From positions 2,240,001-2,304,000 of the forward strand of contig OY730476.1 of NCBI GenBank assembly GCA_963422735.1: a stretch of DNA of 64,000 nucleotides. The letters run 5' to 3'. The translations under genes and the position numbers were made by a program. Source of the DNA: Candidatus Latescibacterota bacterium. Lineage in GTDB: Bacteria; Latescibacterota; UBA2968; UBA8231. Below the pieces are notes generated by a model, which was not told where the DNA came from, did not search any database, and saw only the letters and a program-made list of their open reading frames with translations. This document shows, in pieces, positions 26,779-50,177 of the stretch (positions within the stretch are counted from its first letter, which is position 1; the number at the start of each line of letters is the position of its first letter).

Positions 26779-29082
26779 CTAGTACGCCACCGCTACCAAG
26801 CGCTGCTGACTATGGCTTTCCTCGTCTCCTTCGACGCGCAATTCCGCCACGTATAGCCCTGGCACTACCTGCGTACCCCAACTCCCCCGGCCATCCCAAA
26901 CCCAAGCCCGACCACCAGCCCGGCCCTCCTCTTCCCGCACCCACATCAGCCGCCCCGCAAGGTCGAAAATCCGCAGGCCAATCCACCGTGCGGCCAAGAC
27001 ATTGACCAGATCGAATTCTACCCGCAGCGCGTCGTTGACCCCGTCGCCATTGGGCGTCAACGCCGGCGGCCCCATCGCCACGTTGGCCAACAACCGCGCC
27101 CCCACGGGCAGACGCACGGCATTTGTGCTGCTGGCGACCTCCGCGTACGCATCGCCCGCATCCACCCGCTGTCGCAACAGCGCATCGGCGGGCCCCTGGG
27201 CGATAAAGGCGTCAAAGCGCGTGGCATCGACAAACACGGTTCCAGCAAAGCGCAGTTCCACTAGCTGACGGCTCCTGATCGGCGCGGCCAAGGCGATGGC
27301 TAACCCCCCTTCCGTCAGTTCAGCCGTTGCCTTCACCACCTCGCCCTCCACCAGCACCGCCACAAACTCAATCGGCGCGGAGGTCTCCACCTCCAAGTGG
27401 TCAAAGCCGCGGCCGGCCACCTGCTGCGGACGAATGTAATAGGCAAACTCGGTCGGTTCCCCGGGCTGCACTTCGACCGGAAAAATCTCCCCCACCACCT
27501 CTTGCGCCACCGGATCGCCGAACTCGATCTCCAGCCAATCTAAGGCCACCCCCGCATCCGGCCGCTCAGACACCAAAGCAACCTCCAACTCGGCGTATTG
27601 TCGCGGCGTGGGCGAAGCGAACGGCTCGCCCGGCTGCAAGTACAGCTTGCTCCACGGGCTCCAATTGGCCCCCGGCGAAAGCGCGGTGTCGATCCGGCCC
27701 TTAAAGGACGGAATGAGCTTGTTGTACTTTCGCTCGGAGACGATCCGGCCGTTTTTGTCGCGATAGGTGATGTCCATTTGCAGGTCATTGCCCGTGCGGC
27801 TGCGCACCTCCACCCGCGTCCCAGTGGGCGCGTCGGCCCGCCAGCGGATCGCGTGTACCTGCTTGTCGCCGCCGAGGTCGAGCAGAGGCGAGGGCAACAC
27901 CAACCGCTGCGGATAGCCCTCGCCAAAAACCTGCAACTCGCGCGTACCGCCCCAATACTGGCAGGGCGGCACAATGCCACAGCCCACGCAAGCGGCCGCG
28001 CAGGCCGCGTCCCAAAACACCCACTCGACCCGCACGTAGCGCGTCTTGATAGGCGCAAAGTGGTGGTTGGCGATCCCGAGCTGGCGATGGGACCTCGTAG
28101 CTTTACCCGCGAATTGCCGGTGCCAGATGCGCGTACCATCCGGCGCCAGTGACCCATCCGTGGTCAGCACTTCGTAGCGGTCAAAGTTGAAGCGGAATTG
28201 CCCGGGCCGCGACAAAAAATCTCCGACGATGCGCACCAAATCCACCCAAAAGACCGCGCCCAAGTCCAAGGTCATGCGCGAGATCACATCGACCGGGCGG
28301 TTGATGCGGCGGTTCTCCGTCCACAGGGAAAACCGGCCGTCGGCCAGCGGCAGCGAATTGGCAAACGACGCAGCGTCGCCAAAGCCGTCGATATCCACAA
28401 TGATTTCCAAGTCCCCGCCCTTGGCCGCCAGATCCAAGGAGAGATTGTCGCCGATGGCTTCGACCTCCACCTCGGCCAGCGCGGCCCCAGCTCCACAGTC
28501 GAGCATTTCGACGCGAATAAATTGCACAAACGGGTCGCGCACCGGGTCCAGCTCCAGCGCGACCTGCTGCCGTTTATTTTCCTTAAAGCGCGCCTTCTCC
28601 CGGTACACAAGGCTACCTTCAATGGGGTTGCCGACCACGTCGATGGCTGGCTCCCCAGTGGAAAGCAACACGTCGAACAGCACACACGGCGGAGCACTCT
28701 CCAAAAAGGTCAGCGCTACCCGGCGCGCTGCCACGGCTCGTCCCAAGTCGATCTCGATCCACCAATCGTCTGGATCGTCGGTCGGGTCGGGTCCCCAGCC
28801 GGTCAGCCGATCTCCGTCAATAGCCCGTGCCGCAGCCAGCACATTGGAGCCAGCCGCGTGAATCCCGCCACCAAAGGCCGCGGCATCGCGCACGGGGTCG
28901 GGATTTTTGCGGATTTTGATCGGACGGATCACCCCAGCGTCGTCGAGCGCGACAATCCCCAGCGGCAAGTGCCAAGTCCGCCACTCATCAGCCGCGTCAA
29001 AGCGGAGCTGCTCGGCGGCGAGTGCACTTGAGAGCAAAGCGCTACTGCCCCACAGGGCGGCTTGGAGTATCTTGCAAATCAT
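26779..29082 (-). CDS. Exported discoidin-like/FlgD-Ig domain protein, subtype A (paralog 1)
   Basis: Signal peptide; AIDGD..TGW..WWIEIDLGR; GEGYP; RSRTGN; WSPWS; LTPNGDGVND; WDGR..VPGLY; ends VAY. Confidence 0.85.
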   Translation of the reverse strand: MICKILQAALWGSSALLSSALAAEQLRFDAADEWRTWHLPLGIVALDDAGVIRPIKIRKNPDPVRDAAAFGGGIHAAGSNVLAAARAIDGDRLTGWGPDPTDDPDDWWIEIDLGRAVAARRVALTFLESAPPCVLFDVLLSTGEPAIDVVGNPIEGSLVYREKARFKENKRQQVALELDPVRDPFVQFIRVEMLDCGAGAALAEVEVEAIGDNLSLDLAAKGGDLEIIVDIDGFGDAASFANSLPLADGRFSLWTENRRINRPVDVISRMTLDLGAVFWVDLVRIVGDFLSRPGQFRFNFDRYEVLTTDGSLAPDGTRIWHRQFAGKATRSHRQLGIANHHFAPIKTRYVRVEWVFWDAACAAACVGCGIVPPCQYWGGTRELQVFGEGYPQRLVLPSPLLDLGGDKQVHAIRWRADAPTGTRVEVRSRTGNDLQMDITYRDKNGRIVSERKYNKLIPSFKGRIDTALSPGANWSPWSKLYLQPGEPFASPTPRQYAELEVALVSERPDAGVALDWLEIEFGDPVAQEVVGEIFPVEVQPGEPTEFAYYIRPQQVAGRGFDHLEVETSAPIEFVAVLVEGEVVKATAELTEGGLAIALAAPIRSRQLVELRFAGTVFVDATRFDAFIAQGPADALLRQRVDAGDAYAEVASSTNAVRLPVGARLLANVAMGPPALTPNGDGVNDALRVEFDLVNVLAARWIGLRIFDLAGRLMWVREEEGRAGGRAWVWDGRGSWGTQVVPGLYVAELRVEGDEESHSQQRLVAVAY

Positions 29083-29211
29083 GGTGCCTCCTATGGCATC
29101 GGTCTCCTCGGCTGGCGTTGAGTCGCCCCAAGCGACGCGAAGTCATAGTATATTGAACCTCGCTTCTCCATCCAATCCGCGCTTGCTTCTTATATATTGC
29201 CCTTGTTATTG

Positions 29212-29437
29212 TAGTGGTCAGTGGCCAGTGATTAGTGAGCAGCCCCCGGCCACAGACCCCTGACCACAGGCCACTGACCCCTGACCCCTGACCCCTGACC
29301 CCTGACCCCTGACCACAGGCCACAGACCCCTGACCACAGGCCACAGACCCCTGACCACAGGCCACTGACCCCTGACCCCTGACCACTGACCACAGGCCAC
29401 AGGCCACTGACCACTGACCCCTGACCCCTGACCACTT
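29212..29437. repeat. Heptamer array: short YAGTGRY arm, then 26 units of four variants
   Basis: 29250-29431 is 26 x 7 bp of ccacaga/cccctga/ccacagg/ccactga; complementary tagtggt cagtggc cagtgat tagtgag arm at 29212-29239. Confidence 0.95.
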
Positions 29438-29453
29438 CACTGGAGGAAAAGCA

Positions 29454-30461
29454 ATGCCCGCGCTCACATCCCACCAACTCGACCACTTTGCCAGCGAAGG
29501 CTACGTCGTCGTCAAAGGCGTCCTCGATCCGGTCACCACCTTGGACCCGGTCATCGACGAATACGCCACCGTTCTCGACAGCTTGGCCGACGCGCTCTAC
29601 GCTCAGGGCGAAATTACCTCGCGCTACGAAGATCTCGAGTTTGGCGACCGCTACATCCAAATTTGCGTTGAAACCGGCCGCGTCCACAGCCAGTACTTCG
29701 ACTTCTCACTGCCCTTTCAAAACGTCCAGCCCAACACCCCCTTCTGGGCCGGGCCGGCCGTCTTCCGCGCCTTCACAGACCCGAACCTACTCAATGTCGT
29801 CGAGTCGCTGATTGGACCGGAAATCTACTCCAACCCGGTCCAGCACGTGCGCATCAAGCCGCCCGAGCACTACCTGCCCAAAAATCAGTTCGGCAACCCC
29901 ATTCTCGGCGCTACTCAGTGGCACCAAGACCACGGCGTCGTAACCAAGGAAGCGGATGACACGCAGATGCTGACCGTGTGGTTCTCGCTCCAAGACACCC
30001 CCATCGAGAAGGGGCCGCTGATGGTCGCGCCCGGCTCGCACAAAAGCGGCCTTTTGCCCCACTGCCCCAACTACATGGACAACGCGCCGCAATTCGCAGG
30101 TGCGGCCCAAGTCCCGGAAAAGCTCTTCGCCGCCGATCGGGCCATTCCCCTGCCGGTCGAGCGCGGCGACGTCATCTGCGTCCACAAGCAGACCGTCCAC
30201 GGCTCCTATCCCAACGCCAGCGACGAGGTCCGTTGGAGCTTTGACCTGCGCTACAATCCCACCGACCAGCCCACCGGGCGCATCGCCTTCCCCGGGTTTG
30301 TGGCGCGCAGCCGCCGCGATCCAGATAGCGAGCTACGCGACCCAGCCGAGTGGCACCGGCTATGGCTGGAGGCGCGGGCCAAAATGTCCGCTATCAATCA
30401 AGGCGACCAGATCGACGTCCCCTTCCGCCGCGCGCAGATGGCGCACCCTCTGTGCGCCTAG
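29454..30461 (+). CDS. Phytanoyl-CoA dioxygenase (PhyH)-family Fe(II)/2OG oxygenase
   Basis: FASEGYVVVK, WHQD, PGSHK, HGS..N.S..VRWSFDLRY; RBS GGAGG. Confidence 0.92.
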   Translation: MPALTSHQLDHFASEGYVVVKGVLDPVTTLDPVIDEYATVLDSLADALYAQGEITSRYEDLEFGDRYIQICVETGRVHSQYFDFSLPFQNVQPNTPFWAGPAVFRAFTDPNLLNVVESLIGPEIYSNPVQHVRIKPPEHYLPKNQFGNPILGATQWHQDHGVVTKEADDTQMLTVWFSLQDTPIEKGPLMVAPGSHKSGLLPHCPNYMDNAPQFAGAAQVPEKLFAADRAIPLPVERGDVICVHKQTVHGSYPNASDEVRWSFDLRYNPTDQPTGRIAFPGFVARSRRDPDSELRDPAEWHRLWLEARAKMSAINQGDQIDVPFRRAQMAHPLCA

Positions 30462-30466
30462 ACGCC

Positions 30467-31495
30467 ATGCAGCCATTCGACCGCTACGCCGACCTGCTCA
30501 CCTATATCCAAGACAACGGCTACACCCCGCAAATCCTCGGCCGCGCGCCCGACGGACAACCCATTGTCGCGGTCAAAAGCGGCGGTGCCAAAACACCGGC
30601 AATCTTCATCAGTGCCGGCAGCCACTCCACCGAACAGGCCGGCGTCAGCGCGGCCGGTGCCCTCATCGACGAGATAGAGACCGAGCACCAGCTCTACACT
30701 ATTCCCAGTCGCGACCCCATCGGCATGAATGGCCTCGCCTACGCGCTCGGCCTGAGTCTAGATGCAGCCCCGAACCTCGGCGACCTTGACGACATTGCTC
30801 CCTTGCTCAGAAAGCGCGGTAAAATTCTCTATGACGAAGGCGAAACCGCGGTTGCCCTCATCGGCGAGTATGGCTACGCGACGAGCAACCTGTACAACCA
30901 TCCAGTAGGGGATTGGCTCGAAGCACTCAAAGGCCGTCGACTCTACTTCCCCGCCAGCAATCCCGGCGTCGAGCGTGCGTACACGCTGGTGATTACCCCG
31001 GCCGGTGAAGTCCTCCATCTCAACCGCTTCCACGACACGCCTTGGGCACCTGTCGAGCCGCGTTGCACCCGCGACCTGATGGCCGCCATACGGCCCGGCT
31101 TGACGCTGGACCTCCACGAGCACGGGGGCGACTTCTTTTGGTTTTCGGCGCGGCAGCAGCGCACCCCCAGCGACCAGCAGTGGGAGGAGGCCATGGCCAG
31201 CGAGATGATCGCTGCGGTCGCGGCCTCTGGCGTGGCCCTCGCCCCGAGCGATTACTTGCCCGGGTCTTTTTTCACCAAAGGGCCGCGCAGCGTCTTCTGG
31301 CTCAACCCCCAACAGCGCGGCGAGGGCCTCAACCTCGCCGACTTTGCCGCGCACACCTACGGCTTGGCCTTCACCATTGAGACCGGCATGGAGCGGCCCT
31401 TTGCCGAGCGGGTCCACACCGCAAAGATCGCCGTGCAAAAGGCCGTCGAGGTCTTTGAGAGACGCCACGCCGGATGCCCGTCGGCCACGCCCTAA
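30467..31495 (+). CDS. M14-like zinc carboxypeptidase/deacylase
   Basis: AGSHSTE (HxxE), LNRF, LDLHE, FTIE motifs. Confidence 0.75.
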   Translation: MQPFDRYADLLTYIQDNGYTPQILGRAPDGQPIVAVKSGGAKTPAIFISAGSHSTEQAGVSAAGALIDEIETEHQLYTIPSRDPIGMNGLAYALGLSLDAAPNLGDLDDIAPLLRKRGKILYDEGETAVALIGEYGYATSNLYNHPVGDWLEALKGRRLYFPASNPGVERAYTLVITPAGEVLHLNRFHDTPWAPVEPRCTRDLMAAIRPGLTLDLHEHGGDFFWFSARQQRTPSDQQWEEAMASEMIAAVAASGVALAPSDYLPGSFFTKGPRSVFWLNPQQRGEGLNLADFAAHTYGLAFTIETGMERPFAERVHTAKIAVQKAVEVFERRHAGCPSATP

Positions 31496-32718
31496 GCCGC
31501 TTTCGGCTGCGGGAATTTAACCGCAATGTCCGGCTGTTTTTTGCTTTCGGCACCTCGATCAACGCCGGCATGGCGCTCTTTTCCCTGCTGTACAATCTCT
31601 ATCTACTGCGCCTGAGCTACCAAGAGGACTTCATCGGCCAAGTCGCCAGCATGGCACCGTTGGCGACCGGCTTGTTAGCACTGCCCACCGGCATCCTGAG
31701 CGACCGCCTCGGCCGCAAGCCCTTCCTCATAGCCTCGGGTCTGCTGCTAGCCATCTCCCAGTTGGGCCTATGCTTGACCACATCGCCGGGTGCGCTGCTG
31801 GCGTTCTCGTTTGTCGGCGGCGTGGCCATGGCCTTCGTCTGGGTCAACCACGTCCCCTTCCTCTCGGACAACGCCCACCCAGCGCGTCGCGCCGAAGCCC
31901 TCGCCATCTGGTCGGCTCTGCAAATAATCGTCCGCATGCTTTTGAGCCTAGTCGGCGGCTTCATGCCCGGAGTCATGGGCTACTTCCTCGGCCTTTCCAC
32001 CGAGGCCCCTGCGCCCTTCCGCTACGCGCTGTTTTTCGGCGCGGCTTGTTCGCTCATAGCCGTCGTGCCGCTGTTGTACGCATCCGGTCCGGGTCGCCGC
32101 GAAAGAGCACCCGCACCGACCCGGTCGCCGGACGACAACGAGCCAGCAGCCTCGCCGTGGCGCGTCTTTGCCGCCATTGCCGCCTTGAGTGGTACGCGCG
32201 GCTTCTCCATGGGGCTGACGTATCCGTTTTTCAACGTATTCTTCGAGGCCGAGTTGGGCGTCGGTCCGGCTGCAATCGGCGTGATTTTCTTCCTCAGCCA
32301 ACTCGCCGGTCTGCCAGCGACCTTCGCCGCACCGGCACTGATGCGCCGCTTCGGGCCGACGCTGGCCATCCTCCCGGCCCGCACTGTGGGCGGTAGTGCA
32401 CTCGGGATCATGGGGGCCTTTATCAGCCTGCCGTTGGCCGTGCCCATGTTCCTGCTCGTGCGCATCGGCGAAGTCATTGACAACCCGTCCGACCAGCACT
32501 TCTCCACCCAAGTGCTGCCCCGGCGTTACTGGGCGCGGATCCAAGGTCTCCGCGTGTGCGGCTTCCAGCTTTTGAGCTTCCTCGGCAGCCTCGTAGGCGG
32601 TACGCTCATCCTCGACTATGGCTACGGGGCCGCCTTTGGACTAGCCTGCGCGTCGCGGATTGCGAGCGGCCTGATCATGGCGGCTTTTTTCGGGCTGCGG
32701 CCAACGCGCCCCTTATAG
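31474..32718 (+). CDS. MFS transporter
   Basis: About 12 hydrophobic segments; GILSDRLGRK motif A. Confidence 0.92.
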   Translation: MPVGHALSRFRLREFNRNVRLFFAFGTSINAGMALFSLLYNLYLLRLSYQEDFIGQVASMAPLATGLLALPTGILSDRLGRKPFLIASGLLLAISQLGLCLTTSPGALLAFSFVGGVAMAFVWVNHVPFLSDNAHPARRAEALAIWSALQIIVRMLLSLVGGFMPGVMGYFLGLSTEAPAPFRYALFFGAACSLIAVVPLLYASGPGRRERAPAPTRSPDDNEPAASPWRVFAAIAALSGTRGFSMGLTYPFFNVFFEAELGVGPAAIGVIFFLSQLAGLPATFAAPALMRRFGPTLAILPARTVGGSALGIMGAFISLPLAVPMFLLVRIGEVIDNPSDQHFSTQVLPRRYWARIQGLRVCGFQLLSFLGSLVGGTLILDYGYGAAFGLACASRIASGLIMAAFFGLRPTRPL

Positions 32719-32896: not shown

Positions 32897-34864
32897 ATGC
32901 GACATGAGTTTGCTCTTGCATTAATGCTAAGCGGTCTGTCGGCGCGCTCATGGGCGGTAGATGAGTTTCGCCTCGGCGGCACAAAGCCGTGGGCGGCGTG
33001 GACCGGGCAGCAGCAAATGATGGACGACGCTACCGACCCGTCCGCACTCCAGCCGCGCGAGCTCAAACCCGGCGAAAACTTGCTCCCCCAATTAGGGCCT
33101 TGGTATCGCTGGCGATCCCCCGGAGAATCCACCTATCGCTTAGGCGATGTCCGCATCTGGCGCGGGATCAACTACCTCCGCCCACGCGCCGAGCCACGCG
33201 ACTTCGTCGATGGCGACCCCACAACCTTTTTCTCCGCCCAAAATTTTTCCGATCCCAACGAGTTCTATACTATCGATCTGGGCGTACCGGTACCAGTAGA
33301 GCGTTTCGCCTTCTACCCGCCGGAGGGCAAAGACGCCCTTACTCAAGAGCCGTACCGTCCCAACTTCGCCTTTAAAAAATACGAACTCTCGGGTAGCCTC
33401 GACGCGGTGGGGATAGAAGCAGAAGATGGAGTCGCCTACCGTCCGCTGGACATCGTGCTGGCCAGTGTAGATTTGAACATCGAGGCCGTAGTAAACATCG
33501 ATTTCCGTCTGCAGTACTTGCGTTTTTTTCGCATCTACTTTTTCCCCGACAAGAGTGGGCGGTTCTACTTCAGATTCGCCTTAGCCGAGTTTGAAGTGTC
33601 CGGCCGAGGATTCCCACCGCGGGCTGTGTGGACGTCGCAAGTAATCGATTTAGGCCAAGAGGTCAATATCGGGCGCGTACGCTTTGGCGCGAGTAAGTGG
33701 CGGCGCGAAGGCGACCAAATCGCAGCCGCGCCCGACGCGTCAACATCCGCGCAAGTAGAAATCAAGACCGGCCTAGATACCACCCCCACCGGCTACCACG
33801 GGTACGACGACATCGGCCAACTCGTGGAAGTAACGCAAAGCGCATACGAACGGCTCAAGCAGCGCATCTGGCCCTGGGATCCCCCGGCCGTGGGCTGGCG
33901 CGGCCCCATTTTCGACGACGCGGACAACTGGAGCTTTTGGTCGCCGCCGCTGCGCCATTCCGGCGAGTTGCCCCGAGTGCCGAGCGGGCGTTACCTACAA
34001 GTACGCCTGACGCTAACGACCGAAGCGCTGTGGGATTTTACGCGCTTGGATTCGCTGGCGATTGCGTATTCTCCGCTGCTGGCCGAGCGGGTGTTAGGCG
34101 AGGTAGCCGCGGCCGGCGACCTGCAGCCCATAGGCCATATCGCCGAGGTGCCGGCCGGGCAAACGATCGAGTTGGTCTGCGACCTGCGGGCCGAGTTCGC
34201 GGCGGAGCAAGCCGGTTTTGACGCGGTGCGCCTGACCCTGCCCGGGGCGGGTGCCCTGCTCGGCTTGGAGATGGGCGATCCCCTGCAGGCGGTGGCTGCC
34301 GACAGCACAGTCGCCGAACCCGAGGGTCTAGCGATCTACCTACCCGAACCCATCCGCGACGGGGGCGCGCAAACGCTGCGCTTGCACTTGGAAACCGTCA
34401 TGTACACGGCTTCGGGTGCTGTGCAAGCCGAGGTATTCACGCGCACTGGACAGAGCCTACCGCAGCAGGTGGAAGGGGGCGACGCCAGCGACGCCTTAGG
34501 CACAGATCAACTGCACATGGTCGCCATCGGGCGAGCATTGGATGAGGTATTGGGTGAGGTAGAGGTGCTGCCGACCGCGTTCACCCCGCAGGGCGACAGC
34601 ATCAACGACCACGTAGCGATCCAGTACACCTTGTTCCGCTTGCTAGCGGCCGCCGAGGTAGAGTTGGAAATCTACGCGCTCGACGGGCGCTCCACGTGGC
34701 GGCAAGCCCTCGGTGCACGGCTCAGCGGCCGCCATCAAGCGATGTGGAACGGGCGCGACGAGAAAGAACAACTCGTCGCACCCGGGATATACGTCGTGCA
34801 GGTGCGCGCCAAAACGGACCAAGGGCAATGGGCGCAGGAACGCAGCCTCGCAGTGGTCTATTAA
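32897..34864 (+). CDS. Exported discoidin-like/FlgD-Ig domain protein, subtype B (paralog 2)
   Basis: Signal peptide; IDLGVPVPVERFAFYP; EFEVSGRGFP; NWSFWS; YSPLLAE..GEV; FTPQGDSIND; WNGRD..VAPGIY; ends VVY. Confidence 0.85.
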   Translation: MRHEFALALMLSGLSARSWAVDEFRLGGTKPWAAWTGQQQMMDDATDPSALQPRELKPGENLLPQLGPWYRWRSPGESTYRLGDVRIWRGINYLRPRAEPRDFVDGDPTTFFSAQNFSDPNEFYTIDLGVPVPVERFAFYPPEGKDALTQEPYRPNFAFKKYELSGSLDAVGIEAEDGVAYRPLDIVLASVDLNIEAVVNIDFRLQYLRFFRIYFFPDKSGRFYFRFALAEFEVSGRGFPPRAVWTSQVIDLGQEVNIGRVRFGASKWRREGDQIAAAPDASTSAQVEIKTGLDTTPTGYHGYDDIGQLVEVTQSAYERLKQRIWPWDPPAVGWRGPIFDDADNWSFWSPPLRHSGELPRVPSGRYLQVRLTLTTEALWDFTRLDSLAIAYSPLLAERVLGEVAAAGDLQPIGHIAEVPAGQTIELVCDLRAEFAAEQAGFDAVRLTLPGAGALLGLEMGDPLQAVAADSTVAEPEGLAIYLPEPIRDGGAQTLRLHLETVMYTASGAVQAEVFTRTGQSLPQQVEGGDASDALGTDQLHMVAIGRALDEVLGEVEVLPTAFTPQGDSINDHVAIQYTLFRLLAAAEVELEIYALDGRSTWRQALGARLSGRHQAMWNGRDEKEQLVAPGIYVVQVRAKTDQGQWAQERSLAVVY

Positions 34865-34896: not shown

Positions 34897-34973
34897 TGGT
34901 GGGCGATCCCAGACTCGAACTGGGGACATCCTGCTTGTAAGGCAGGCGCTCTGACCAACTGAGCTAACCGCCC
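34897..34973 (-). tRNA. tRNA-Val (TAC)
   Basis: GGGCGGTTAGCTCAGTTGGTCAGAGCGCCTGCCTTACAAGCAGGATGTCCCCAGTTCGAGTCTGGGATCGCCCACCA; cloverleaf, TTCGA, encoded CCA. Confidence 0.97.
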
Positions 34974-41468: not shown

Positions 41469-43481
41469 TCAATACGCTACCGAGACCGAACGAAATTGCT
41501 CTGATGCTTCCTTGTCTGCATCTGCCTTTATGTGCAGGAGGTATATGCCGGGGGGGACCAACTCCCCTTGGTCGTCGCGTCCGTTCCATTGCTCAGTATA
41601 AAAACCCTTGTTGAATTTCCCGCGCACCAAGACTCTGACCTGCTGGCCTGCAAGGGTATAGACGCCGATCTCGGTGGCGGTATCTTCGACGCCCAGTAGC
41701 GTGAATGCGATGTCGAGTTCGTCGTTGATGCGGTCGCCGTTGGGAGTCAGGACCGACGTCGCCAACGCGATCTCAGAGAGCGTTTCTAGGGAGGTACCCG
41801 TGGCGAAAACGCGGACATCGTTGCTATTGAGATCTGCACTCGCGTCGCCAGGATCAATAGACTGGGGCAGGTTTTCCCCCTCCAACTCCAACACCTCTCC
41901 GAGGAAGTGGGTAGTGAAGTCCAATAAGGCCGTGCGAAAGGTAAGCCGTAGGTGCTCCTCTCCATCGGCGCGCACCACTTTATGCGAGGGAAAATACACG
42001 GCTAAAACCCCGTCGGCGAAGCGGACGCTGTCGGGGGCTATCTCCTCGAGTGGCTGTCCGATTTCTAGCTTGACGAGCTCGGCCTCGGCTACGGTATTGA
42101 GTTTGATAGCATCAAAGCCTAGCTGGCCGTCGGTGCCGAAACTAGCTAAGAGATCGTAGATAAATGTCGTCTCTTGGCCAGCCGGCGCTTCGGGCACCCG
42201 GTCTTCTCCCCCGGCCAAACCCACCTCGCCGACGATGGCCTCCACGAGGAGCGGCGAGTACTCAATCGCTACGGATTGTACCTGGCCGAAGGTGTGGAAA
42301 TCCTCGGCTACCATATTGAACTGAAGCTGCATATAACGCCGTGCGTCCGGCGAACGGAGCAATTGGCCGGGAAGGTCGTAGGGCGTTGACCAGAAACTCC
42401 AGTTTTGCTCATCGAGCTTGATCGACGATTTGTCGCCGGGGCGGTCTCCCTGAACAAAGGGCGATTTCTCCAGTGCTTTATTGTAAACCGCTTCTTCTAC
42501 TTTCCGTTCCGTGCCTATATCGCTGATGATGTAATACGCCTTCGGAGTATCGTCCTTGCCGGTGCGGGTTTCCACTACCAAGCTAATCGGCGCATCCGGC
42601 GACGGAATGGGTTCTGGTTCGCCCGGCGTTTTGCGGAACTTTTCAAACTCCCAAAAAATGCGCCCGAAATTCACCGGTACTCCCAGGTCGATAACCGATG
42701 TGAGATAACTAGTATCCGGCGCAAAACCCTCGCCATACACCTCAACCTCGCTCAGCATGTACACCTGTTCAATCAGATTAAAGGAAATGCGCAAAAAACG
42801 CAGAGTCTGCGCGGGGAAGCCAACATCTATAACGCGGTCGGAGTTGACAAAGGTGCGGAACAGTACCTGCTCTAGGGTGCGAGGTCTGTCTTCTTCGCTG
42901 AGCAGGAGAAAATCCGCAGGTTCTCTGGCACCCGATATTTCATACGCCCGGGGAAAGCGTTGCTTTCTCAAGCCCCCGGATTCGTCCAGTCCGGTAGCCG
43001 GAGGATAGAATACCACGCGATTTACGGGAATGGGAAACGCAAAGTCAAAAGTATATATATCTTCCCGGCGACCCCCACCCACCCTAGACCAACGCAGCTT
43101 GGTCACCGTAGCGAGATCGCCGTCAATGACCTGAAAGGGTGCCGTGTGGTAGAGGGGCAGAATACTGGTCCAGAAACGAGGCGTTACCCCCAGTTCAAAA
43201 TCGTCCCTTTTGGGCTGCTTGCCTAGCTGCCAAGTGCTGCCCAGAATCGTAGTATATTCACCGCTCTCCGTGCGGGGACCGGCGATGATATTCTGATGCG
43301 GCAAAAGTTCGAGGGGCTGTAGGGCACCATTGACCGAGACCGTCTCCAAGCCGACGGCGCGCTCACCGAGTTCGTCCCAAGGGACCCCGCCCTGTCCGAG
43401 AACCAAAGTGTGGGTCTCGGCCCGCAGCGGCTCGACGCCGCTCAACAAGACCGCAGCAACGGCAATGAAAGTAATTTTCAT
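41469..43481 (-). CDS. Exported discoidin-like/FlgD-Ig domain protein, subtype B (paralog 4)
   Basis: FPIPVNRVVFYPP; EVEVYGEGF; TRTGKDDTP; NWSFWS; LTPNGDRIND; WNGRD..VPPGIY; ends VAY. Confidence 0.85.
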   Translation of the reverse strand: MKITFIAVAAVLLSGVEPLRAETHTLVLGQGGVPWDELGERAVGLETVSVNGALQPLELLPHQNIIAGPRTESGEYTTILGSTWQLGKQPKRDDFELGVTPRFWTSILPLYHTAPFQVIDGDLATVTKLRWSRVGGGRREDIYTFDFAFPIPVNRVVFYPPATGLDESGGLRKQRFPRAYEISGAREPADFLLLSEEDRPRTLEQVLFRTFVNSDRVIDVGFPAQTLRFLRISFNLIEQVYMLSEVEVYGEGFAPDTSYLTSVIDLGVPVNFGRIFWEFEKFRKTPGEPEPIPSPDAPISLVVETRTGKDDTPKAYYIISDIGTERKVEEAVYNKALEKSPFVQGDRPGDKSSIKLDEQNWSFWSTPYDLPGQLLRSPDARRYMQLQFNMVAEDFHTFGQVQSVAIEYSPLLVEAIVGEVGLAGGEDRVPEAPAGQETTFIYDLLASFGTDGQLGFDAIKLNTVAEAELVKLEIGQPLEEIAPDSVRFADGVLAVYFPSHKVVRADGEEHLRLTFRTALLDFTTHFLGEVLELEGENLPQSIDPGDASADLNSNDVRVFATGTSLETLSEIALATSVLTPNGDRINDELDIAFTLLGVEDTATEIGVYTLAGQQVRVLVRGKFNKGFYTEQWNGRDDQGELVPPGIYLLHIKADADKEASEQFRSVSVAY

Positions 43482-43719: not shown

Positions 43720-45276
43720 ATGACTAATGCTACGCACACCCTGCTGCTCCCCAACCAAGTTGACGAGGCCCTCGCCGCGCACTTTGCCGCGCTCGGCGTC
43801 GGCACGATATCGGCCTACAAGCTCTGGTGCCACCGGCACGGCCTGAGCACGGCACTGGACAAAACACCGCAAGAGTGGGCCGAGGAGCGGGCACTTTTCG
43901 CCGCGTTGCAGCCATCGGTAGATCCAACAGCCAGCAAGGAGCACGACCCGCGTCGCGCTGCGCTGATCGGCCGGCTCTTCAACGGTGAGCTAGAGGGAGA
44001 AAAGCTCAACGATCTGCTCTCTCGGTTGCGCGTCGAACGCAACGCGCTGGCCGGCGTCCCAGACGCCCAAAAGGCCCTAGGGCGGCTGGTGCTGCACGTC
44101 GAAAAGTACGGCCACTTGCTGCGGCCCATGCCCGTGCTCAAGCGCCTCGGTGCCAACCGCACCAACACCTATATCGCCGCCTTGGGGCAACTGGCGCAGC
44201 ACCATCGCGACTGGCTGCGGCCGGTGGAGGAGTGGCGGCCCGACACGACCAAGGAGCGACCCCAGTTCCGGGCACTGGCGCGGCATCTGCTCGCCCGCTA
44301 CGAGGTCCCCGCGCCCATGGACACCGCTTGGCTCCAAGGACACACTGCGGAAGCCTATCAGCAGCAGGAGTGGTTCAAGCACGTAGCAGGCGGCCAAAAC
44401 TTGCGCACCGCGGGTGTGCCGATGAAGGTCACCAAGCGCATGGCGCATATCTTCATGCAGACCGACCATCCGCACCATACCCTGCTCCAAGCGCTGCGCA
44501 TGGCCCAAGTGGAGGCGCTCGGCGGCGACTCCCACGTATCTTGGTACGTGGCCGCCACGCCGCTGGGCGATTCGTTGGAAAACGAGGACTTCTGGATTTC
44601 GGTCGTCCACTTCTACGTCAACAACTACCCCATGCTACACCGCAGCTACTTCCTGCCGGTCTACGACTACATCCGCCACCAGAAGTACCTGCCCCAGCAG
44701 ATCACGCGGCCCGATGGCACCCAAGTCGAAGGGCCGCCGCCGCAGCCCAACTTCTGCATGAAAGGCCGCAGTGCTGCCAAATTGCTCCACCAAGTGGATC
44801 AATGGCATGAGACGTTGTCGGGAGAAGAAGATGTACCGCTCAAGACGTGGGCGGCTACGGGTTTGGCTGGTTTCCGCCTCGAAGAATACGACGCGCAACT
44901 CAAGTACAACCTCGTCTGGACCCTGTACGAACTCTGCACCTCGCAGCAGCTTCAGACCGAAGGCCGCATCATGGGCCACTGCGTCTTTTCTTACACCGAG
45001 CGATGCCTTGCTGGCGACACTTCGATCTGGTCGCTGCGGGCACTCAACGCCGATGCCGAAGAGGCCCTCGAAAAGCGCGTCCTCACCATCGCCGTTGACA
45101 ACCGCCAGCGGGCCATTACCCAAGCCCGAGGCAAGTTCAACATGGCACTCAATCAGCGGGAGCGGCTGGAGAAGAGACGCCGAGCCGGTTCTCTATACGT
45201 GCATTTGTTGCGCGAGTCGGCGCGGATTTTGCGCTTGTGGACCGATAAGGTGGGATTGGTGCAGAAGAGCACGTGA
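43720..45276 (+). CDS. PcfJ-like domain-containing protein
   Basis: C-terminal LQTEGRIMGHCVFSY...SIWSL...TIAV...QARGKFN pattern. Confidence 0.72.
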   Translation: MTNATHTLLLPNQVDEALAAHFAALGVGTISAYKLWCHRHGLSTALDKTPQEWAEERALFAALQPSVDPTASKEHDPRRAALIGRLFNGELEGEKLNDLLSRLRVERNALAGVPDAQKALGRLVLHVEKYGHLLRPMPVLKRLGANRTNTYIAALGQLAQHHRDWLRPVEEWRPDTTKERPQFRALARHLLARYEVPAPMDTAWLQGHTAEAYQQQEWFKHVAGGQNLRTAGVPMKVTKRMAHIFMQTDHPHHTLLQALRMAQVEALGGDSHVSWYVAATPLGDSLENEDFWISVVHFYVNNYPMLHRSYFLPVYDYIRHQKYLPQQITRPDGTQVEGPPPQPNFCMKGRSAAKLLHQVDQWHETLSGEEDVPLKTWAATGLAGFRLEEYDAQLKYNLVWTLYELCTSQQLQTEGRIMGHCVFSYTERCLAGDTSIWSLRALNADAEEALEKRVLTIAVDNRQRAITQARGKFNMALNQRERLEKRRRAGSLYVHLLRESARILRLWTDKVGLVQKST

Positions 45277-45885: not shown

Positions 45886-46410
45886 TTAACGGGTACCCAC
45901 TGAAAGCAGCGATTTGACCTGTCCCCAGGTCTGGGCTTCGACGCTCGTAGCGGAAGGGGAGGCTGGCCGCCATTCGGGAAAATTTCCGCCCAAGCCATTG
46001 GTCAGTTCGACCAAGTTGCTCCCATCTGTATCAATAGTCCAAATCTCAAACGGGCCGCCTATATCGGGGCTAGAAGCGAAGGCTATTCTCATGCCGTCGG
46101 ATGACCAAGTCGGGTTTATATCATAGTTGGGGCTGTCGGTCAGGCGAGTGGGCGTACGCTCGTCTCCACTGTTATCAACAATATAGATGTCAGTCTGGTC
46201 CTCATCCCCCCGGATGAACATGTTTTTAGTTCCGTCTGGAGAAGGCGTCCTTATTGTTCGGGCGATAGCCCCCTCCTTCCGGTCCGCAGGTAGGGGACCA
46301 CTTCCGTCTTCTATCCCTATAACAAACGACTCAGTGCCCGCTTGCCCCCAGCCATCAACTGTCAACCCCAGCGTTGCCAAGCAGACGATTAGTAGAGACC
46401 GATAGCCCAT
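45886..46410 (-). CDS. Exported TolB/PD40-like repeat protein with TWGQVK tail
   Basis: Signal peptide; RLTDSPNYDINPTWSSDGMRIAFAS; ends ATSVEAQTWGQVKSLL; RBS AAGGAG. Confidence 0.78.
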   Translation of the reverse strand: MGYRSLLIVCLATLGLTVDGWGQAGTESFVIGIEDGSGPLPADRKEGAIARTIRTPSPDGTKNMFIRGDEDQTDIYIVDNSGDERTPTRLTDSPNYDINPTWSSDGMRIAFASSPDIGGPFEIWTIDTDGSNLVELTNGLGGNFPEWRPASPSATSVEAQTWGQVKSLLSVGTR

Positions 46411-46550
46411 AACGTGGCTCCCTTTAAATTTGCGAATTGGGCAAAGTGTGGCTAGACACTATGACTAAAACCTGATGACTTACAAGTACGGCGTACGCAA
46501 GGCATCTTCAACCGGTGAAGGGGATTTCAGTCCCGTCGGCAGTCGTCTCT

Positions 46551-48455
46551 TCAATAGAACACGCTGAGCGTCCTAGCTAGCACCTCTTCCCCCGACTCGG
46601 CCTCGGCCGCGATGCGCACTATATAAGCCCCTGGAGGTACCAGATTGCCGATCGCATCGCGGCCGTCCCAGGTTTGTTCGTAGGCTCCGGCGGACAAGGC
46701 GTCAAAAAAAAGCTGACGCACCCGGCGTCCAGCCAGATCGTAGATGCCGATGGAGAAATCGACCTCCTGCACCAAACGCAAGACTTGAAAAGTAATGCGA
46801 CTCTCTTCGTTGACGCCGTCCCCATTGGGGGTACACACCGCCGGTACGACCTGCATAGTGGATAAAATCCCACCCTCTGCGGCATTGGAGAAAAAGACCC
46901 GGCTAGTGTTGGTGCCAACACTCGGACTGGCATCGCCGGCAGCGACGGGCTGGGGTAAACGACCTCCAGAGTCGATTAGGTGGCTCGCCAAGTTAGTAGC
47001 ATAGACCAGAATAGCCGTGCGAAAAGTAACGCGCAGCGGCTTGTTGTTGTTCGGCCCGATCCGGTTCGATGGGAAGGACAGCATCAGCCCACTCGCATTC
47101 GCGTGGACGCTGTCGGGCACCACCTCGACGAGCGGCTCACCCATCTCGAATTTGAGCAACGTCGGTTCGCTCTGGGTTGCGATGTGCAAGCCATCGAACC
47201 CCATCTGCGCGTCGCTGCTAAATTCTGCCCGAATGTCATAGGTAAAAAGAGTATCTCGACCTGCTGGCACCGCAACTATACCCCCTGGGGGGAACGGGTC
47301 TGCGACAACGGCGACCTCGCCTACGGCGCGGTCGGCCAGAGGCAGTGAGTAGCTAACAGCCAAGCTGTCTATCTGGATGAGATCGGTAGAGGTGCCCCGA
47401 AAAAAAAGCTGGAAATCAAAATACCTTCTTGGGCCAGGCAGTTCGAGGGGATAGGTAAAAATACCTGTCGAATCAATGCGGATCGGATTCTTCCAGGTCC
47501 AGCTTTCGGCATCGTTGAGGATGGAACCGCGAAAATCCTCCGCCAGCTTGGCATAGGCGTCTGCGGTCGTGGGTTGCTCTGAACCCGTTTCGCGATCGAC
47601 GATTTCAAAATGGACTAGGGGAGTCTCATCAGTGCCGTTGCGCAGGGTCAGGTCCACGGACGCCGCGGCTGTCGCTGTCGGGAGCAGGACGCCGTCTGGC
47701 TGTCGGCGCAACTTGGTGGTTTTGACGGAGAGCGTGCCGAGAATCGCTGCTGTGGGCAATTCAATAAGCTTGGAAATATAAGTGCCTTTGGGCACGAAAC
47801 CTGTGCCAAAGGCTTCGATTTCCGCTATTTCAAATGGATTGGGCGAAAGAATGCGCAGCCTGATAAAACGGATTAGCTGCACTGGAAAGTCGATTGTCGC
47901 TCTCGGCTCGGTCTGCAAATCAACGCGTTTCAAGACCTGATAGCGCGGCTCTCCTTGCTGGGTATAGTCGCGGCCATCACTCACAGAAAGTTCAAAGGCC
48001 CTAGGAAAGTCGTCGGGAAAGGATGGGCTGGGAAAGTAGATCAGACGATTGGCCGGAAAAGAAGCCCCTAAGTCCAAAAAAAAGATGCGACCAGTCTGAT
48101 CGGTGCCCAGCCCTTTGAATCGGCCGCCGGAAGAAGTCTGGTCATCGCCATCGACTAGGACGGCGGCAGAGCCTTCGATGGCGGCGTTGTCCCAGATGTG
48201 GGCACTGCCTTCGGTGACAAAGTCCAACGTAGGCGAGTCGCTCCAATCGAGTGTGCGGAGGATATTGTCGGTTTCTGCCAAGCCGATAGGACGGATCAAA
48301 GCCGGGTTCTGCAGATCTACTCCTCCTGCGACCGCGGCCTGAGAATCCCAAGAAAGCCCATCCCCACCGACTCTATAGCTTTCAACCTGTGCTCCGAGCG
48401 GCGCATTCAGCCAACATACTCCGCATAAAACGAGGCTGCCTGTGAGCAGTCTCAT
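46551..48455 (-). CDS. Exported discoidin-like/FlgD-Ig domain protein, subtype B (paralog 5)
   Basis: ATGA-coupled to the upstream lipoprotein; LDLGASFPANRLIYFP; EIEAFGTGF; CTPNGDGVNE; WDGRD..VPPGAY; ends VFY. Confidence 0.85.
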   Translation of the reverse strand: MRLLTGSLVLCGVCWLNAPLGAQVESYRVGGDGLSWDSQAAVAGGVDLQNPALIRPIGLAETDNILRTLDWSDSPTLDFVTEGSAHIWDNAAIEGSAAVLVDGDDQTSSGGRFKGLGTDQTGRIFFLDLGASFPANRLIYFPSPSFPDDFPRAFELSVSDGRDYTQQGEPRYQVLKRVDLQTEPRATIDFPVQLIRFIRLRILSPNPFEIAEIEAFGTGFVPKGTYISKLIELPTAAILGTLSVKTTKLRRQPDGVLLPTATAAASVDLTLRNGTDETPLVHFEIVDRETGSEQPTTADAYAKLAEDFRGSILNDAESWTWKNPIRIDSTGIFTYPLELPGPRRYFDFQLFFRGTSTDLIQIDSLAVSYSLPLADRAVGEVAVVADPFPPGGIVAVPAGRDTLFTYDIRAEFSSDAQMGFDGLHIATQSEPTLLKFEMGEPLVEVVPDSVHANASGLMLSFPSNRIGPNNNKPLRVTFRTAILVYATNLASHLIDSGGRLPQPVAAGDASPSVGTNTSRVFFSNAAEGGILSTMQVVPAVCTPNGDGVNEESRITFQVLRLVQEVDFSIGIYDLAGRRVRQLFFDALSAGAYEQTWDGRDAIGNLVPPGAYIVRIAAEAESGEEVLARTLSVFY

Positions 48456-49177
48456 TCCTGCGCCCAATCTGCCGGAGGCTGATACCCCCTGAATACCTCG
48501 CGCTGAAAATGGTACGCCAGATCTATGGTCTCGACGGGCTGCTGCCTGAAGTCGAAGCGAATTGCCACGTCGCTGAGGTGAACGGTAAACTCATTGATAT
48601 CGTGGGGTAACGCGGGAAATACCACAAACCCCTCAACTTCTTGGCCACTGAAAATGTCTTCGTCTGGATATATGGTGCGGGTCAGAATCTCTCTCCGCTC
48701 CCGAAAGACACTGTAGGCATTGCCCGCATACCCGGGAATCATGGAACCATAGAATTCGAGGATATCCGTTCTGTTGAGAGGATCGTACTCGCGGCCGGCC
48801 TGTTGGGAGACCAGCGTTATTCGGGTGGGGTCCAGATGTACCTTGGGATACTCGTAGTTTTTCACCTGGACCGAAAAGACGGTGTACTTTGGTGGCGTGT
48901 AGGTATCGCCTAGCGGCTTCCAATTGCCAAAGGTATATGGATTCTTGGAGTTGGCACCCGCCGCAGAGTAGTCGGCAAATTGACGGTTCAGCTCTTCGTC
49001 CGCCATGGGGCGCAGAGAGATTTCGAGGCGGTTGAAAACGGCGGTAATGGTCCCGTCGTCCTCAACCGAGGCATAGGCTTCCTGGCGATTTTCGGGCGCG
49101 GGTGCGATCAGCCCGGGGAAATAGCGACCACAACCAACCAGCACCAGCAGAACCAAGGCACCCAAGCATGGACTCAT
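48452..49177 (-). CDS. Hypothetical lipoprotein
   Basis: Lipobox LVLVG|C; alternative start 49198. Confidence 0.75.
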   Translation of the reverse strand: MSPCLGALVLLVLVGCGRYFPGLIAPAPENRQEAYASVEDDGTITAVFNRLEISLRPMADEELNRQFADYSAAGANSKNPYTFGNWKPLGDTYTPPKYTVFSVQVKNYEYPKVHLDPTRITLVSQQAGREYDPLNRTDILEFYGSMIPGYAGNAYSVFRERREILTRTIYPDEDIFSGQEVEGFVVFPALPHDINEFTVHLSDVAIRFDFRQQPVETIDLAYHFQREVFRGYQPPADWAQE

Positions 49178-49210
49178 CGCAAAGCGCTTCCCAGACATCC
49201 TACAAAATGC

Positions 49211-49250
49211 AAAAGCGGGAAGTAGAGATATGTACACCTCTCCTCCCCGC
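49211..49250 (-). terminator. Intra-operon terminator/stabilising hairpin
   Basis: Minus strand gcggggaggagag...ctctacttcccgc followed by tttt. Confidence 0.55.
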
Positions 49251-49268
49251 TGCTGAAATGGGAAAATT

Positions 49269-50177
49269 TTACTCGTCGAAAGTCGCCTTGATTTTTCCCC
49301 AAGTACTGCCTTCGACTGCGGTGCCGACATCGCTGCCCCGGGTGTACTCATCTACGGTCAACAGAGTAAAGTCAGAGGCGAAATCCTGATCTCTATGCGC
49401 CCCATTGACGTCTCCGGTTACTAGCTGATGCGTCCGGGCCGCGCCTTCAGCAGGCGTCGTATCGGCCTCGTTGAGCTGGTAGGTGAGACCAACCGTCATG
49501 CCCGGCTGCAAGATCACTCGGTCTGTAGAGGCCTCGTCGTTTTCCAAGTTGACCCACAGCGGCATGGCGAACTCATAGCCTAGGGTGACATTAGTCGATC
49601 CGTGCGTAGCACCAGGAGGGCTAAGACCGACATCGGCCTCAATATAGGCCGTAGCCCACTGCTTAGCCGGATCGGCGTCTTTGCGTAGCCAAGTCGTCCC
49701 GTTGCCGTAGGGCGTCGAATACCCGCCGGGAACCTGCGCGTGCATGGTCCACTGCTGCGCGTTCACTTGGTTCGGATCGCGGTACGGACCGCCGCTATGG
49801 TCGCCATCGGTAATAATTTCGAGATCGTCCTCAAACCACCCGTTTTCTGGATCCGTTTCGGCCGCGTGCAGAGAATCGTCCGTCACCCGCACAAAGCCCA
49901 AGATGCGGTTGTCAGGTGGCTGCGTCCAAGCCGTCCTTATGGAAACATCGATATCGCTCTTGTCTGGAATCACCTGTTGTACGACCTCGCCCATTTCGTC
50001 GGGAGTGATGATGAAATTAGGGTCGTACCAAGTCCAATCTCCGTCCTCGCCATCGGCGACGTACGTCACATCCGCTGGCCATTCCAAAGCGAAATATCCA
50101 AAACCATTGGCACTGCTGTGTGCAAAGCACGCGCTCGCAGCCAACAGCAAAACGCCAGAAACAGCAAATATCCTCAT
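49269..50177 (-). CDS. Exported CBM9/DOMON-like protein with TWGKIK tail
   Basis: Signal peptide; DGEDGDW, VRVTDD, DDLEIITDGDHSGG, YEFAMPLW; ends TAVEGSTWGKIKATFDE; RBS AAGGAG. Confidence 0.7.
   Translation of the reverse strand: MRIFAVSGVLLLAASACFAHSSANGFGYFALEWPADVTYVADGEDGDWTWYDPNFIITPDEMGEVVQQVIPDKSDIDVSIRTAWTQPPDNRILGFVRVTDDSLHAAETDPENGWFEDDLEIITDGDHSGGPYRDPNQVNAQQWTMHAQVPGGYSTPYGNGTTWLRKDADPAKQWATAYIEADVGLSPPGATHGSTNVTLGYEFAMPLWVNLENDEASTDRVILQPGMTVGLTYQLNEADTTPAEGAARTHQLVTGDVNGAHRDQDFASDFTLLTVDEYTRGSDVGTAVEGSTWGKIKATFDE

Follow-up and report, generated by a model that had tools for sequence, protein, structure and literature searches.

A repeated barrel and lectin cassette in a Latescibacterota genome: a candidate module for surface nutrient capture and uptake

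What would a bacterium do with a set of predicted surface lectins encoded side by side with a very large barrel-like protein and a small lipoprotein? The question is raised by positions 26779-50177 of a 64,000-nucleotide stretch of DNA from a Candidatus Latescibacterota bacterium (assembly GCA_963422735.1, contig OY730476.1, positions 2,240,001 to 2,304,000; hereafter the window, from whose first letter all positions are counted unless they are called genome positions). The original prediction, made from the letters alone, took this run of genes as a candidate for an undescribed cell-surface secretion, display or uptake system. Here the run is examined in the context of the whole genome (4.95 Mb in one contig, 95% complete), the window proteins being compared by BLAST with all its open reading frames (ORFs), and in that of other genomes, family databases and solved structures. 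Latescibacterota are widespread and, to our knowledge, have no cultured member. In the 2015 analysis PMC4454575 Latescibacteria are read mainly as polymer degraders, and for uptake across the outer membrane it offers no more than a guess, 'non-specific porins'.

The cassette and its distribution

The window locus is one copy of a repeated cassette that encodes a CBM9-like protein (CBM, carbohydrate-binding module), a lipoprotein, two lectins of a B type, one lectin of an A type, an 893-residue barrel and a tetratricopeptide-repeat (TPR) lipoprotein. From its first gene on it reads as follows.

49269-50177, minus strand: CBM9-like secreted protein, 302 aa, signal peptide read from the translation; first gene of the cassette
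48452-49351, minus strand: lipoprotein of an unnamed family, likely start Met at 49198 or 49177, lipobox ...LVGC
46551-48467, minus strand: B-type lectin in position 'B5', 638 aa, probably begun at the ATG at 48455
41469-43481, minus strand: B-type lectin in the 'B4' position, 670 aa
39120-41453, minus strand: A-type lectin of the cassette, 777 aa
36426-39107, minus strand: barrel, 893 aa with a TTG start or 878 aa if begun at the following ATG, 39062
35027-36418, minus strand: TPR lipoprotein, 463 aa, matched by many TPR families of Pfam

The intervals are short: B4 and the A lectin are 15 bp apart, the A lectin and the barrel 12 bp, the barrel and the TPR gene 7 bp. The stop of the lipoprotein overlaps the ATG of the B5 lectin (48455) as ATGA. 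The ORFs, the 15- and 7-bp gaps and the ATGA coupling are all where the original prediction had put them, and its gene layout stands with one correction, that the second of its five lectin paralogues lies on the plus strand. It had also treated the five as one set. Three of them (46551-48467, 41469-43481 and 39120-41453) do make up the cassette proper, but paralogues 1 and 2 are an orphan A and B pair, and all five are members of a family 69 strong in this genome. Judged from the translations, each of the ten cassette-linked proteins begins with a signal peptide or a lipobox.

How far has the cassette been multiplied? Clustering of the ORFs found no more than 15 kb from a barrel gene puts 32 full-length barrels in 21 regions of the genome, and the 69 lectin paralogues are represented in all 21. 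There are 24 CBM9-like paralogues in 18 of the regions and 20 TPR paralogues in 15; for the lipoprotein, clustering gives 12 in 10 regions, and BLAST 17 copies spread over 12. Taken together, the genes for barrels, lectins, CBM9-like proteins and lipoproteins occupy 278,704 bp (5.6% of the genome). The barrels have diverged, sharing 25-56% identity (BLAST). The canonical order, which runs from the CBM9-like gene through lipoprotein, B, B and A to the barrel, is found four more times, at these genome positions.

2516038-2526981: canonical cassette
2548980-2560071: canonical cassette
3726730-3737473: canonical cassette
3797767-3808850: canonical cassette

The window copy is itself canonical save for an insertion of about 3 kb between its two B genes, which holds two genes.

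43720-45276, plus strand: PcfJ-like gene (PF14284, E=1.4e-10)
45886-46410, minus strand: small secreted PD40 (TolB-like repeat) protein (PD40, E=1.1e-8), C-terminal ...TWGQVKSLL

These Pfam matches bear out the PcfJ and TolB-like assignments made from the letters. The PD40 gene is not part of the canonical cassette; in the other canonical copies the two B genes stand side by side. The insertion varies among close relatives, one of which (L009) has its B genes about 22 bp apart with neither PcfJ nor PD40, and another (L005) PcfJ only, without PD40; PcfJ is present in 12 orthologous loci. Four PcfJ-like genes occur in the genome, a second one lying at genome positions 3262698-3264311, about 7 kb from another barrel pair.

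The three lectins of a cassette are not recent copies of one another. A FastTree phylogeny of the 69 paralogues (values given here are local supports only) sets apart an A clade of 24 sequences with a support of 100, the remaining paralogues being the B proteins. In canonical cassettes the barrel's immediate neighbour is always an A gene, and the two genes upstream of that belong to different B clades, the second gene to one with a support of 97 and the third to one with 99. The window copy conforms: B4 (41469-43481) clusters with the second-upstream genes of four other cassettes (97), and B5 (46551-48467) with the genes that lie third upstream in four other canonical copies (99). Since the clades are position-specific, the A/B/B' triplication predates the amplification of the cassette, which argues for three non-interchangeable subunits. 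The subtypes A and B of the original prediction are accordingly old and distinct clades, with two separate B clades, as would fit a fixed A + B + B' set.

Is the association kept in other organisms? With the barrel as query, 54 loci were retrieved from public genomes, most of them Candidatus Latescibacterota and some, by title, Gemmatimonadota or Handelsmanbacteria. Lectin paralogues are present in all 54, which puts the linkage far above chance, and in 53 of the 54 the first recognised gene adjoining the barrel, or the barrel pair, encodes a lectin (the exception is L013). Two layouts recur, a single barrel with the lipoprotein and tandem double barrels. The canonical order is seen again in L021 and, without a recognised CBM9-like gene, in L020, and the orthologous loci L001-L019 retain the TPR gene behind that of the barrel.

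The same pattern holds in a sample of 151 genomes spread evenly over the phylum. The barrel is present in 94 of these and the lipoprotein profile in 92; by the tables, 91 genomes have both, three the barrel only and one the lipoprotein only, which makes the lipoprotein the part that accompanies the barrel most faithfully over the phylum. The A lectin, used as a query without its tail, is found in 79 genomes, every one of them barrel-positive. Within the window's own family, barrel, lipoprotein and lectin are present in 63, 63 and 62 of 63 genomes, respectively. Two families belonging to the same class, whose genomes are large and almost complete, gave none of the three with these queries (0 of 30 and 0 of 19), and the module is therefore lineage-specific within the phylum. 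This co-occurrence indicates that the parts are not scattered and that barrel and lipoprotein are the oldest pair; it is a pattern and not a statistic, because related genomes are not independent. The original prediction had pointed to gene-neighbourhood conservation as the way to check it, and linkage is indeed conserved in 21 of 21 regions of this genome, in the 54 loci elsewhere and in the phyletic pattern of the 151 genomes.

The two orphan lectins lie at the other end of the run, on either side of three other genes and beyond a tRNA gene.

26779-29082, minus strand: A-type lectin, paralogue 1 (orphan), 767 aa
32897-34864, plus strand: B-type lectin, paralogue 2 (orphan), 655 aa, beyond tRNA-Val
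34897-34973, minus strand: tRNA-Val(tac), found by ARAGORN

In the tree, paralogue 1 groups with the A genes of another region (100) and paralogue 2 with the B genes of two other cassettes (98-99). Between them, at 29454-32718 on the plus strand, are genes for a PhyH-type dioxygenase, a 381-aa ORF without a Pfam family and a transporter of the major facilitator superfamily. PhyH-like genes recur near four cassette regions.

The barrel, the lectins and their companions

The barrel protein belongs to no named family that we could find: no Pfam family matches it at E<=10, NCBIfam has none, and a sequence profile search of the PDB gave no significant match. It does have many relatives: 701 were found among 1.84 billion representative proteins, and 189 of these reach E<=1e-30. 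An AlphaFold model made from a 62-row alignment (predicted local distance difference test, pLDDT, 80.9; predicted template-modelling score, pTM, 0.80) indicates that the 893-aa protein is a large outer-membrane beta-barrel of about 24 strands. The strand number was obtained by counting back from the C-terminus along the DSSP assignment, in which the turns of one side are short and the loops of the opposite side longer. Foldseek matches are to generic barrels only (SlpA/SDBC, MtrB, FimD and LptD, at TM-scores of 0.18-0.26), the best being the SlpA/SDBC structures 8agd, 7zgx and 8ae1 (E 1e-9 to 6e-9, TM 0.20-0.26). VIA-align gave Z up to 13.6 with a root-mean-square deviation (rmsd) of 7-8 A over the aligned parts, and its longest alignments, to SlpA/SDBC, MtrB, FimD/PapC and LptD, cover 432, 338, 338 and 344 residues. 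The model and these matches to outer-membrane barrels agree with the barrel call of the original prediction.

Two large insertions interrupt the barrel. One, at about residues 249-408, is beta-rich; the other, at about 483-613, is rich in Asp and Asn and is the best-conserved part of the family, with the consensus DDNDD..PGLDED.DG.PD.N.N.N..NNNG.ID.REND. Strand parity in the model would place both outside the cell, and the Asp/Asn-rich loop probably binds calcium.

Several known barrels were considered and set aside. PorP/SprF (PF11751) is not supported by any Pfam match at E<=10, and the barrel has 893 residues against a model of 273 positions. For a TonB-dependent transporter of the SusC kind there is no Pfam or NCBIfam family, and the structural matches to TonB receptors are generic (Z 9.2-10.4). 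A chaperone-usher protein, a Slam protein (DUF560) or LptD likewise find no Pfam family at E<=10 and show generic structural likeness only. More broadly, none of the ten proteins scanned against Pfam and NCBIfam shows a SusC, SusD or TonB-receptor family, in keeping with the original prediction that no such protein is recognisable here.

The lectins are better connected to known families. An AlphaFold model of the A lectin at 39120-41453 (59-row alignment, pLDDT 89.1) divides it into a signal peptide, two domains of CBM32/discoidin type (about residues 58-234 and 240-405), Ig-like sandwiches and a tail of CHU_C/FlgD-Ig type (about 680-777). The CBM32 structure 4a42_B superposes on residues 58-234 with Z 16.4 and an rmsd of 1.9 A over 125 of 126 residues; the neuropilin b1b2 pair 2qqi_A aligns with residues 57-409 at Z 13.3 over 270 residues, and the tandem fucolectin 3cqo is the best Foldseek match of the whole model. 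By its model, then, the A lectin has the discoidin/CBM32 fold. In the sequence itself the signal is fainter. The F5/8-type-C family of Pfam (PF00754) matches four of the five window paralogues, all except 46551-48467, at 20-27 bits against a cut-off of 28.2; PF22633 passes its cut-off of 27.8 on 39120-41453, with 34 bits; and 74 of 114 lectin homologues carry a precomputed PF00754 annotation by our count from the table. Compared with solved structures, the A-lectin sequence has FlgD (3osv, E=0.009) as its sole match. Conservation among the 24 A paralogues is lowest in the second lectin domain, where mean identity is 24% as against 38% for the tail.

All five paralogues end in a tail of the CHU_C/FlgD-Ig type, with CHU_C, FlgD_ig or both matching at the C-terminus and the matches ending no more than 20 residues from it. 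CHU_C (PF13585, cut-off 27) passes on 39120-41453 (38.6 bits), 41469-43481 (31.5) and 26779-29082 (27.6) and falls below on 46551-48467 (25.1) and 32897-34864 (24.2). FlgD_ig matches four of the five at 26.4-39.9 bits, among them 46551-48467 (39.9), 32897-34864 (28.8) and 41469-43481 (28.1). TIGR04131 of NCBIfam, the type B tail of T9SS (type IX secretion system), matches one paralogue only, at 31 bits against a cut-off of 35, and there are PorU-tail matches also. The CHU_C-type tails claimed at the outset are thus supported for all five as CHU_C/FlgD-Ig tails, three of them above the CHU_C cut-off, and the ordered motif set claimed with them recurs: the WSxWS, TPNGD, WDGR, PGxY and terminal-Tyr columns vary hardly or not at all across 59 A-type sequences. 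The C-terminus of another ORF of the window (5581-7533, minus strand, 650 aa) matches the lectin tail (83 residues, 36%) and the PorU tail (genome positions 2245626-2245856), making it a candidate for another T9SS-type cargo.

Does the genome have a T9SS to go with these tails? CHU_C has 91 matches in it. A 2140-aa frame is matched by SprA_N at 84 bits, PorU is found at 632 bits, above its cut-off, and the adjacent gene is PorV-like at 152 bits, below its cut-off of 250. The original prediction had named SprA, PorV and GldK-N as the proteins to look for, and of these SprA and a PorV-like gene are present; on the motor side GldL and GldM gave no match and GldK a weak one (below).

The lipoprotein is as anonymous as the barrel. 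It has no Pfam match at E<=10, none in NCBIfam and no significant PDB profile match. The lipobox Cys is invariant in all 11 aligned sequences, which upholds its earlier description as a lipoprotein, and the sequence points to an outer-membrane-type lipoprotein of an unnamed family. We considered SusD/RagB and rejected it, given the same empty Pfam and PDB results and a mature length of about 225 aa. The TPR protein also has a lipobox-like N-terminus (...LVAC).

The 302-aa protein appears to be CBM9-like on indirect evidence. The window protein itself has no Pfam match at E<=10 and its sequence alone matches no solved structure, so the earlier CBM9-like call stands for the family more than for this member: 16 of 27 homologues carry a precomputed PF06452 (CBM9_1), the family profile matches the beta-xylanase chain 7nwn (E=0.0022), which we take to be a CBM9 module, and among its ESM Atlas neighbours CBM9_1 is found in 13-100% of members. 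The CBM9-like paralogues also conserve D42, W48, W84, D100, H127, W174 and E202, and in 19 of the 24 a His directly follows the predicted signal-peptide end (...A-x-A|H, residue 20), with Gln or Tyr in the other five. This N-terminal His could be a metal ligand. A copper site of the histidine-brace kind was considered and not adopted, five of the 24 lacking the His.

The window CBM9-like protein ends in TAVE..STWGKIK, an instance of a general tag TAVE..[ST]WGx[IV]K that stands a few residues before the stop. The core of the tag is present in the last 25 residues of 37 of the 4101 ORFs of the genome, 24 of them cassette CBM9-like proteins. It is also found on the PD40 protein of the window and on other unrelated secreted proteins, as well as on two frames with FGE-sulfatase-like matches (genome positions 2418902-2419819 and 4765826-4766758). 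The TAVE..SWGxIK tail looks like a docking or address tag, and the barrel and the TPR protein are candidates for its reader. This signal shared by unrelated secreted proteins, the scale of the amplification and the fidelity of the lipoprotein are features that go beyond the original prediction.

Capture, display, export or coat?

What might such a cassette do? Our preferred reading, held tentatively and at a little under even likelihood, is that it is a module for surface nutrient capture and uptake that works like Sus but consists of unrelated parts. The barrel of about 24 strands and the small lipoprotein would form the core, serving as channel and platform. One A and two different B lectins would be the binding arms; they would leave by the Sec route and then, by means of the CHU_C/FlgD-Ig tail, through the T9SS translocon, remain at the surface and bind glycans or glycoconjugates through their CBM32-type domains. 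The CBM9-like protein, with its short C-terminal docking tag, and the TPR lipoprotein would act as helpers. Captured material would pass through the barrel and then enter the cell by nearby ABC (ATP-binding cassette) importers or, in other copies, by DUF6785 membrane proteins, and the roughly 20 diverged copies would provide a range of ligand specificities. The genes, folds, linkage and amplification, and the presence of SprA, PorU and a PorV-like gene, are established by the analysis; that the proteins sit at the surface, that lectins touch the barrel, that anything passes through it and what is bound are inferred. We favour uptake because all parts are exported, because the lectin folds are carbohydrate-binding ones and because genes for ABC importers and DUF6785 proteins adjoin.

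As to these neighbours, the genome has 20 ABC permease operons, and 6 of them are found no more than 5 kb from cassette genes, a zone that makes up 6.9% of the non-cassette DNA (binomial P=0.0017). One of the six is an Opp-type set close to the window cassette.

52107-56255, minus strand: Opp/Dpp-type ABC importer, a family-5 solute-binding protein and two permeases (SBP_bac_5 and BPD_transp_1 matches), 2 kb upstream of the cassette

This importer is a possible inner-membrane partner of the cassette. Multi-pass proteins with DUF6785 and DUF6784, with 7-13 hydrophobic segments, number 11 in 9 of the 21 regions. Two further families recur, SurA-like peptidyl-prolyl isomerases (PPIases; 19 proteins in 17 of 21 regions) and FG-GAP/UnbV_ASPIC proteins (19 in 13 of 21, often paired with TPR genes). 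The PPIase, FG-GAP/UnbV_ASPIC and DUF6785 labels come from one Pfam-scanned representative each; regions L055, L056 and L057 are examples that have these families.

A number of observations weigh against the uptake reading. The barrel has no plug, TonB box, TonB-type domain or other energy link recognisable in Pfam, NCBIfam or the model, and its first 100 residues or so are poorly modelled. The association of lectins with the barrel is a proposal, as is the assembly of A and B subunits on it that the original prediction put forward; a predicted complex of the barrel with the A-lectin tail (residues 680-777) had an ipSAE of 0.00 in two runs made without controls, which is uninformative either way. 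CBM32 and discoidin folds serve adhesion too. The lipoprotein gene is missing from 9 of the 21 regions, the enrichment of ABC operons is based on six of them, and no PPIase, FG-GAP or DUF6785 gene lies within 15 kb of the window copy. Bacteroidota polysaccharide utilization loci (PULs) are rich in glycoside hydrolases, and here there is no glycoside hydrolase among the 25 most frequent Pfam families of 117 flanking proteins, a ranking below which single enzymes may still occur; the 117 are drawn from 120 unlabelled ORFs of at least 200 aa within 5 kb of cassettes, the three longest being left out. On the secretion side, GldK is answered only by weak FGE-like matches (65 bits against a cut-off of 350), and the GldL and GldM models match nothing in the genome. 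The silence of these two models, like that of PorP_SprF (PF11751), which has no match in the genome either, is weak evidence, because none of the three matched any of 14 control genomes. With the motor parts GldL and GldM not found and GldK weak, passage of the lectins through the T9SS translocon is a reasonable inference and no more.

A bolder form of the same reading would make the cassette a new class of outer-membrane uptake machine, in which a TonB-independent barrel of about 24 strands with a dedicated lipoprotein is loaded by a fixed, T9SS-delivered trio of lectins and a tag-docked CBM9-like protein, the tail docks soluble helpers to the barrel family, and the roughly 20-fold amplification is, for Latescibacterota, what the PUL repertoire is for Bacteroidota. 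We think this rather unlikely. The uptake reading in general and the alternatives below overlap in part.

Could the barrel merely hold the lectins? As a functional counterpart of PorP/SprF it would take over the three type-B-like tails once T9SS had transported them and display the lectins as adhesins, for instance toward host or particle glycans, and nothing would pass through it. Cognate pairing of type B cargo with PorP/SprF is exemplified by SprB-SprF in Flavobacterium johnsoniae, where type B substrates are genetically linked to, and dependent on, PorP/SprF-like shuttles (PMC12618676), and PMC9143113 reports that PorP-like proteins anchor type B proteins. Much in the cassette is reminiscent of this: CHU_C, the type B family, matches the tail of every one of the five paralogues and passes its cut-off in three, each lectin set adjoins a barrel, and the genome yields no PorP_SprF match of its own (with a model that is silent in the control genomes also). 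Yet FlgD_ig outscores CHU_C on two of the B proteins, and the barrel has no sequence relation to PorP/SprF and about three times the length of that model. Nor does an anchor need some 24 strands, a partner lipoprotein kept across the phylum or a tie to ABC importers, and since PorU and a PorV-like gene are present the lectins could instead be attached in the type A way. A display function is in our view unlikely. Another alternative is a variable surface coat, S-layer-like or serving immune or grazer evasion or host recognition, in which barrels and lectins would be copied for the sake of variation and not of nutrition. The best Foldseek matches of the barrel are to Deinococcus S-layer barrels (SlpA/SDBC), amplification and divergence of the family are strong, with barrels sharing 25-56% identity, and discoidin domains, which often mediate cell-surface recognition, are present. 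The TM-scores to SlpA are only 0.20-0.26, however, the PDB profile search shows no relation, and the barrel model shows neither an SLH nor a coiled-coil segment; the copies are all intact and old, tied to their positions and not recently shuffled, and a link to ABC importers would not be expected of a coat, which we hold to be very unlikely.

We see no more than an outside chance that the barrel is an export pore, a translocon that brings the lipoprotein, the tagged CBM9-like protein or both to the surface in the manner of Slam or an usher, with the TPR lipoprotein as receptor of the tag. The faithful pairing of barrel and lipoprotein (together in 91 of 151 genomes, with four mismatches) would suit it, as would the TPR lipoprotein gene 7 bp after the barrel, to which TPR_Slam gives 39.7 bits; that family, however, is one of 25 overlapping TPR families there, and no stretch passes alone. 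Ushers have 24 strands, and FimD and PapC are among the Foldseek matches, but by Pfam the barrel is outside the usher and DUF560 families and strand parity in the model would point its inserted domain outward, unlike the plug of an usher. The tag, borne by 37 of 4101 ORFs of which 24 are cassette CBM9-like proteins, against 32 barrels, and the SurA-like PPIase genes in 17 of 21 regions are also compatible with export. The 9 of 21 regions that have no lipoprotein gene tell against it, and on this view the three lectins are left without a role.

Known systems and what the cassette may mean

Set beside characterised systems, the capture and uptake module that we favour shares features with each and coincides with none. 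Pfam, NCBIfam and sequence searches of the PDB give nothing significant for barrel or lipoprotein, and no description of the cassette was found in the literature searched, on Latescibacterota with T9SS or discoidin (supplements and subscription papers lying outside that scope), so that in these searches no part matched a characterised system, a match that would have counted against the original prediction.

The nearest counterparts on the secretion side are type B cargo proteins with their PorP/SprF partners (SprB-SprF, or PG1035-PorP in Porphyromonas gingivalis). They have the same CHU_C-type end with TPNGDGxND, their cargo genes likewise lie beside an outer-membrane barrel gene, and SprA, PorU and a PorV-like gene are present in our genome. 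The differences are that the cassette barrel has about 890 aa and, as modelled, about 24 strands and no sequence relation to PorP/SprF; that each barrel, or pair of barrels, is accompanied by three cargo genes whose A/B/B' positions are fixed; that a lipoprotein and a CBM9-like protein are added; that the tails are below cut-off for TIGR04131 and match FlgD_ig as well; and that the organism is outside Bacteroidota and gave no match to GldL or GldM.

The general plan also resembles that of a Bacteroidota PUL built on SusC and SusD, where a barrel, a partner lipoprotein and surface carbohydrate-binding proteins are also encoded in a co-oriented run, with many diverged copies per genome and importers nearby. 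The cassette, in contrast, has no recognisable TonB receptor, plug or SusD; its lipoprotein has about 225 aa and belongs to no known family; its binding proteins are T9SS-type cargo and not lipoproteins; and glycoside hydrolases are absent from the 25 commonest flanking families. Among solved barrels, SlpA/SDBC, MtrB (6r2q_B), FimD/PapC (3rfz_B/2vqi_B) and LptD (5iv9) are of the same very large kind, and LptD, like the cassette barrel, travels with a small lipoprotein, LptE. There is no sequence relation to any of them by profile, and the two large insertions of the cassette barrel have no counterpart there.

The binding domains, too, are familiar folds in an unfamiliar setting. The first domain of the A-lectin model superposes on CBM32 structures (Z 15-16.4, rmsd about 2 A) and domains 1 and 2 together on tandem discoidin and fucolectin structures; they are not attached to an enzyme and are followed by Ig-like domains and a secretion tail. 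Similarly, the CBM9-like protein stands alone with its C-terminal tag, in contrast to the CBM9 modules of xylanases.

In this genome, 5.6% of the DNA is devoted to a module built around barrel and lipoprotein families that are named in no database searched. Should it prove to serve capture and uptake, the task that Sus performs in Bacteroidota would have been solved a second time, independently, and type-IX-style tails would have been used to build a nutrient machine outside that phylum. Even if the barrel were only an anchor, the known partners of type-B-like tails would be widened, and some 700 related barrels would gain a testable role.

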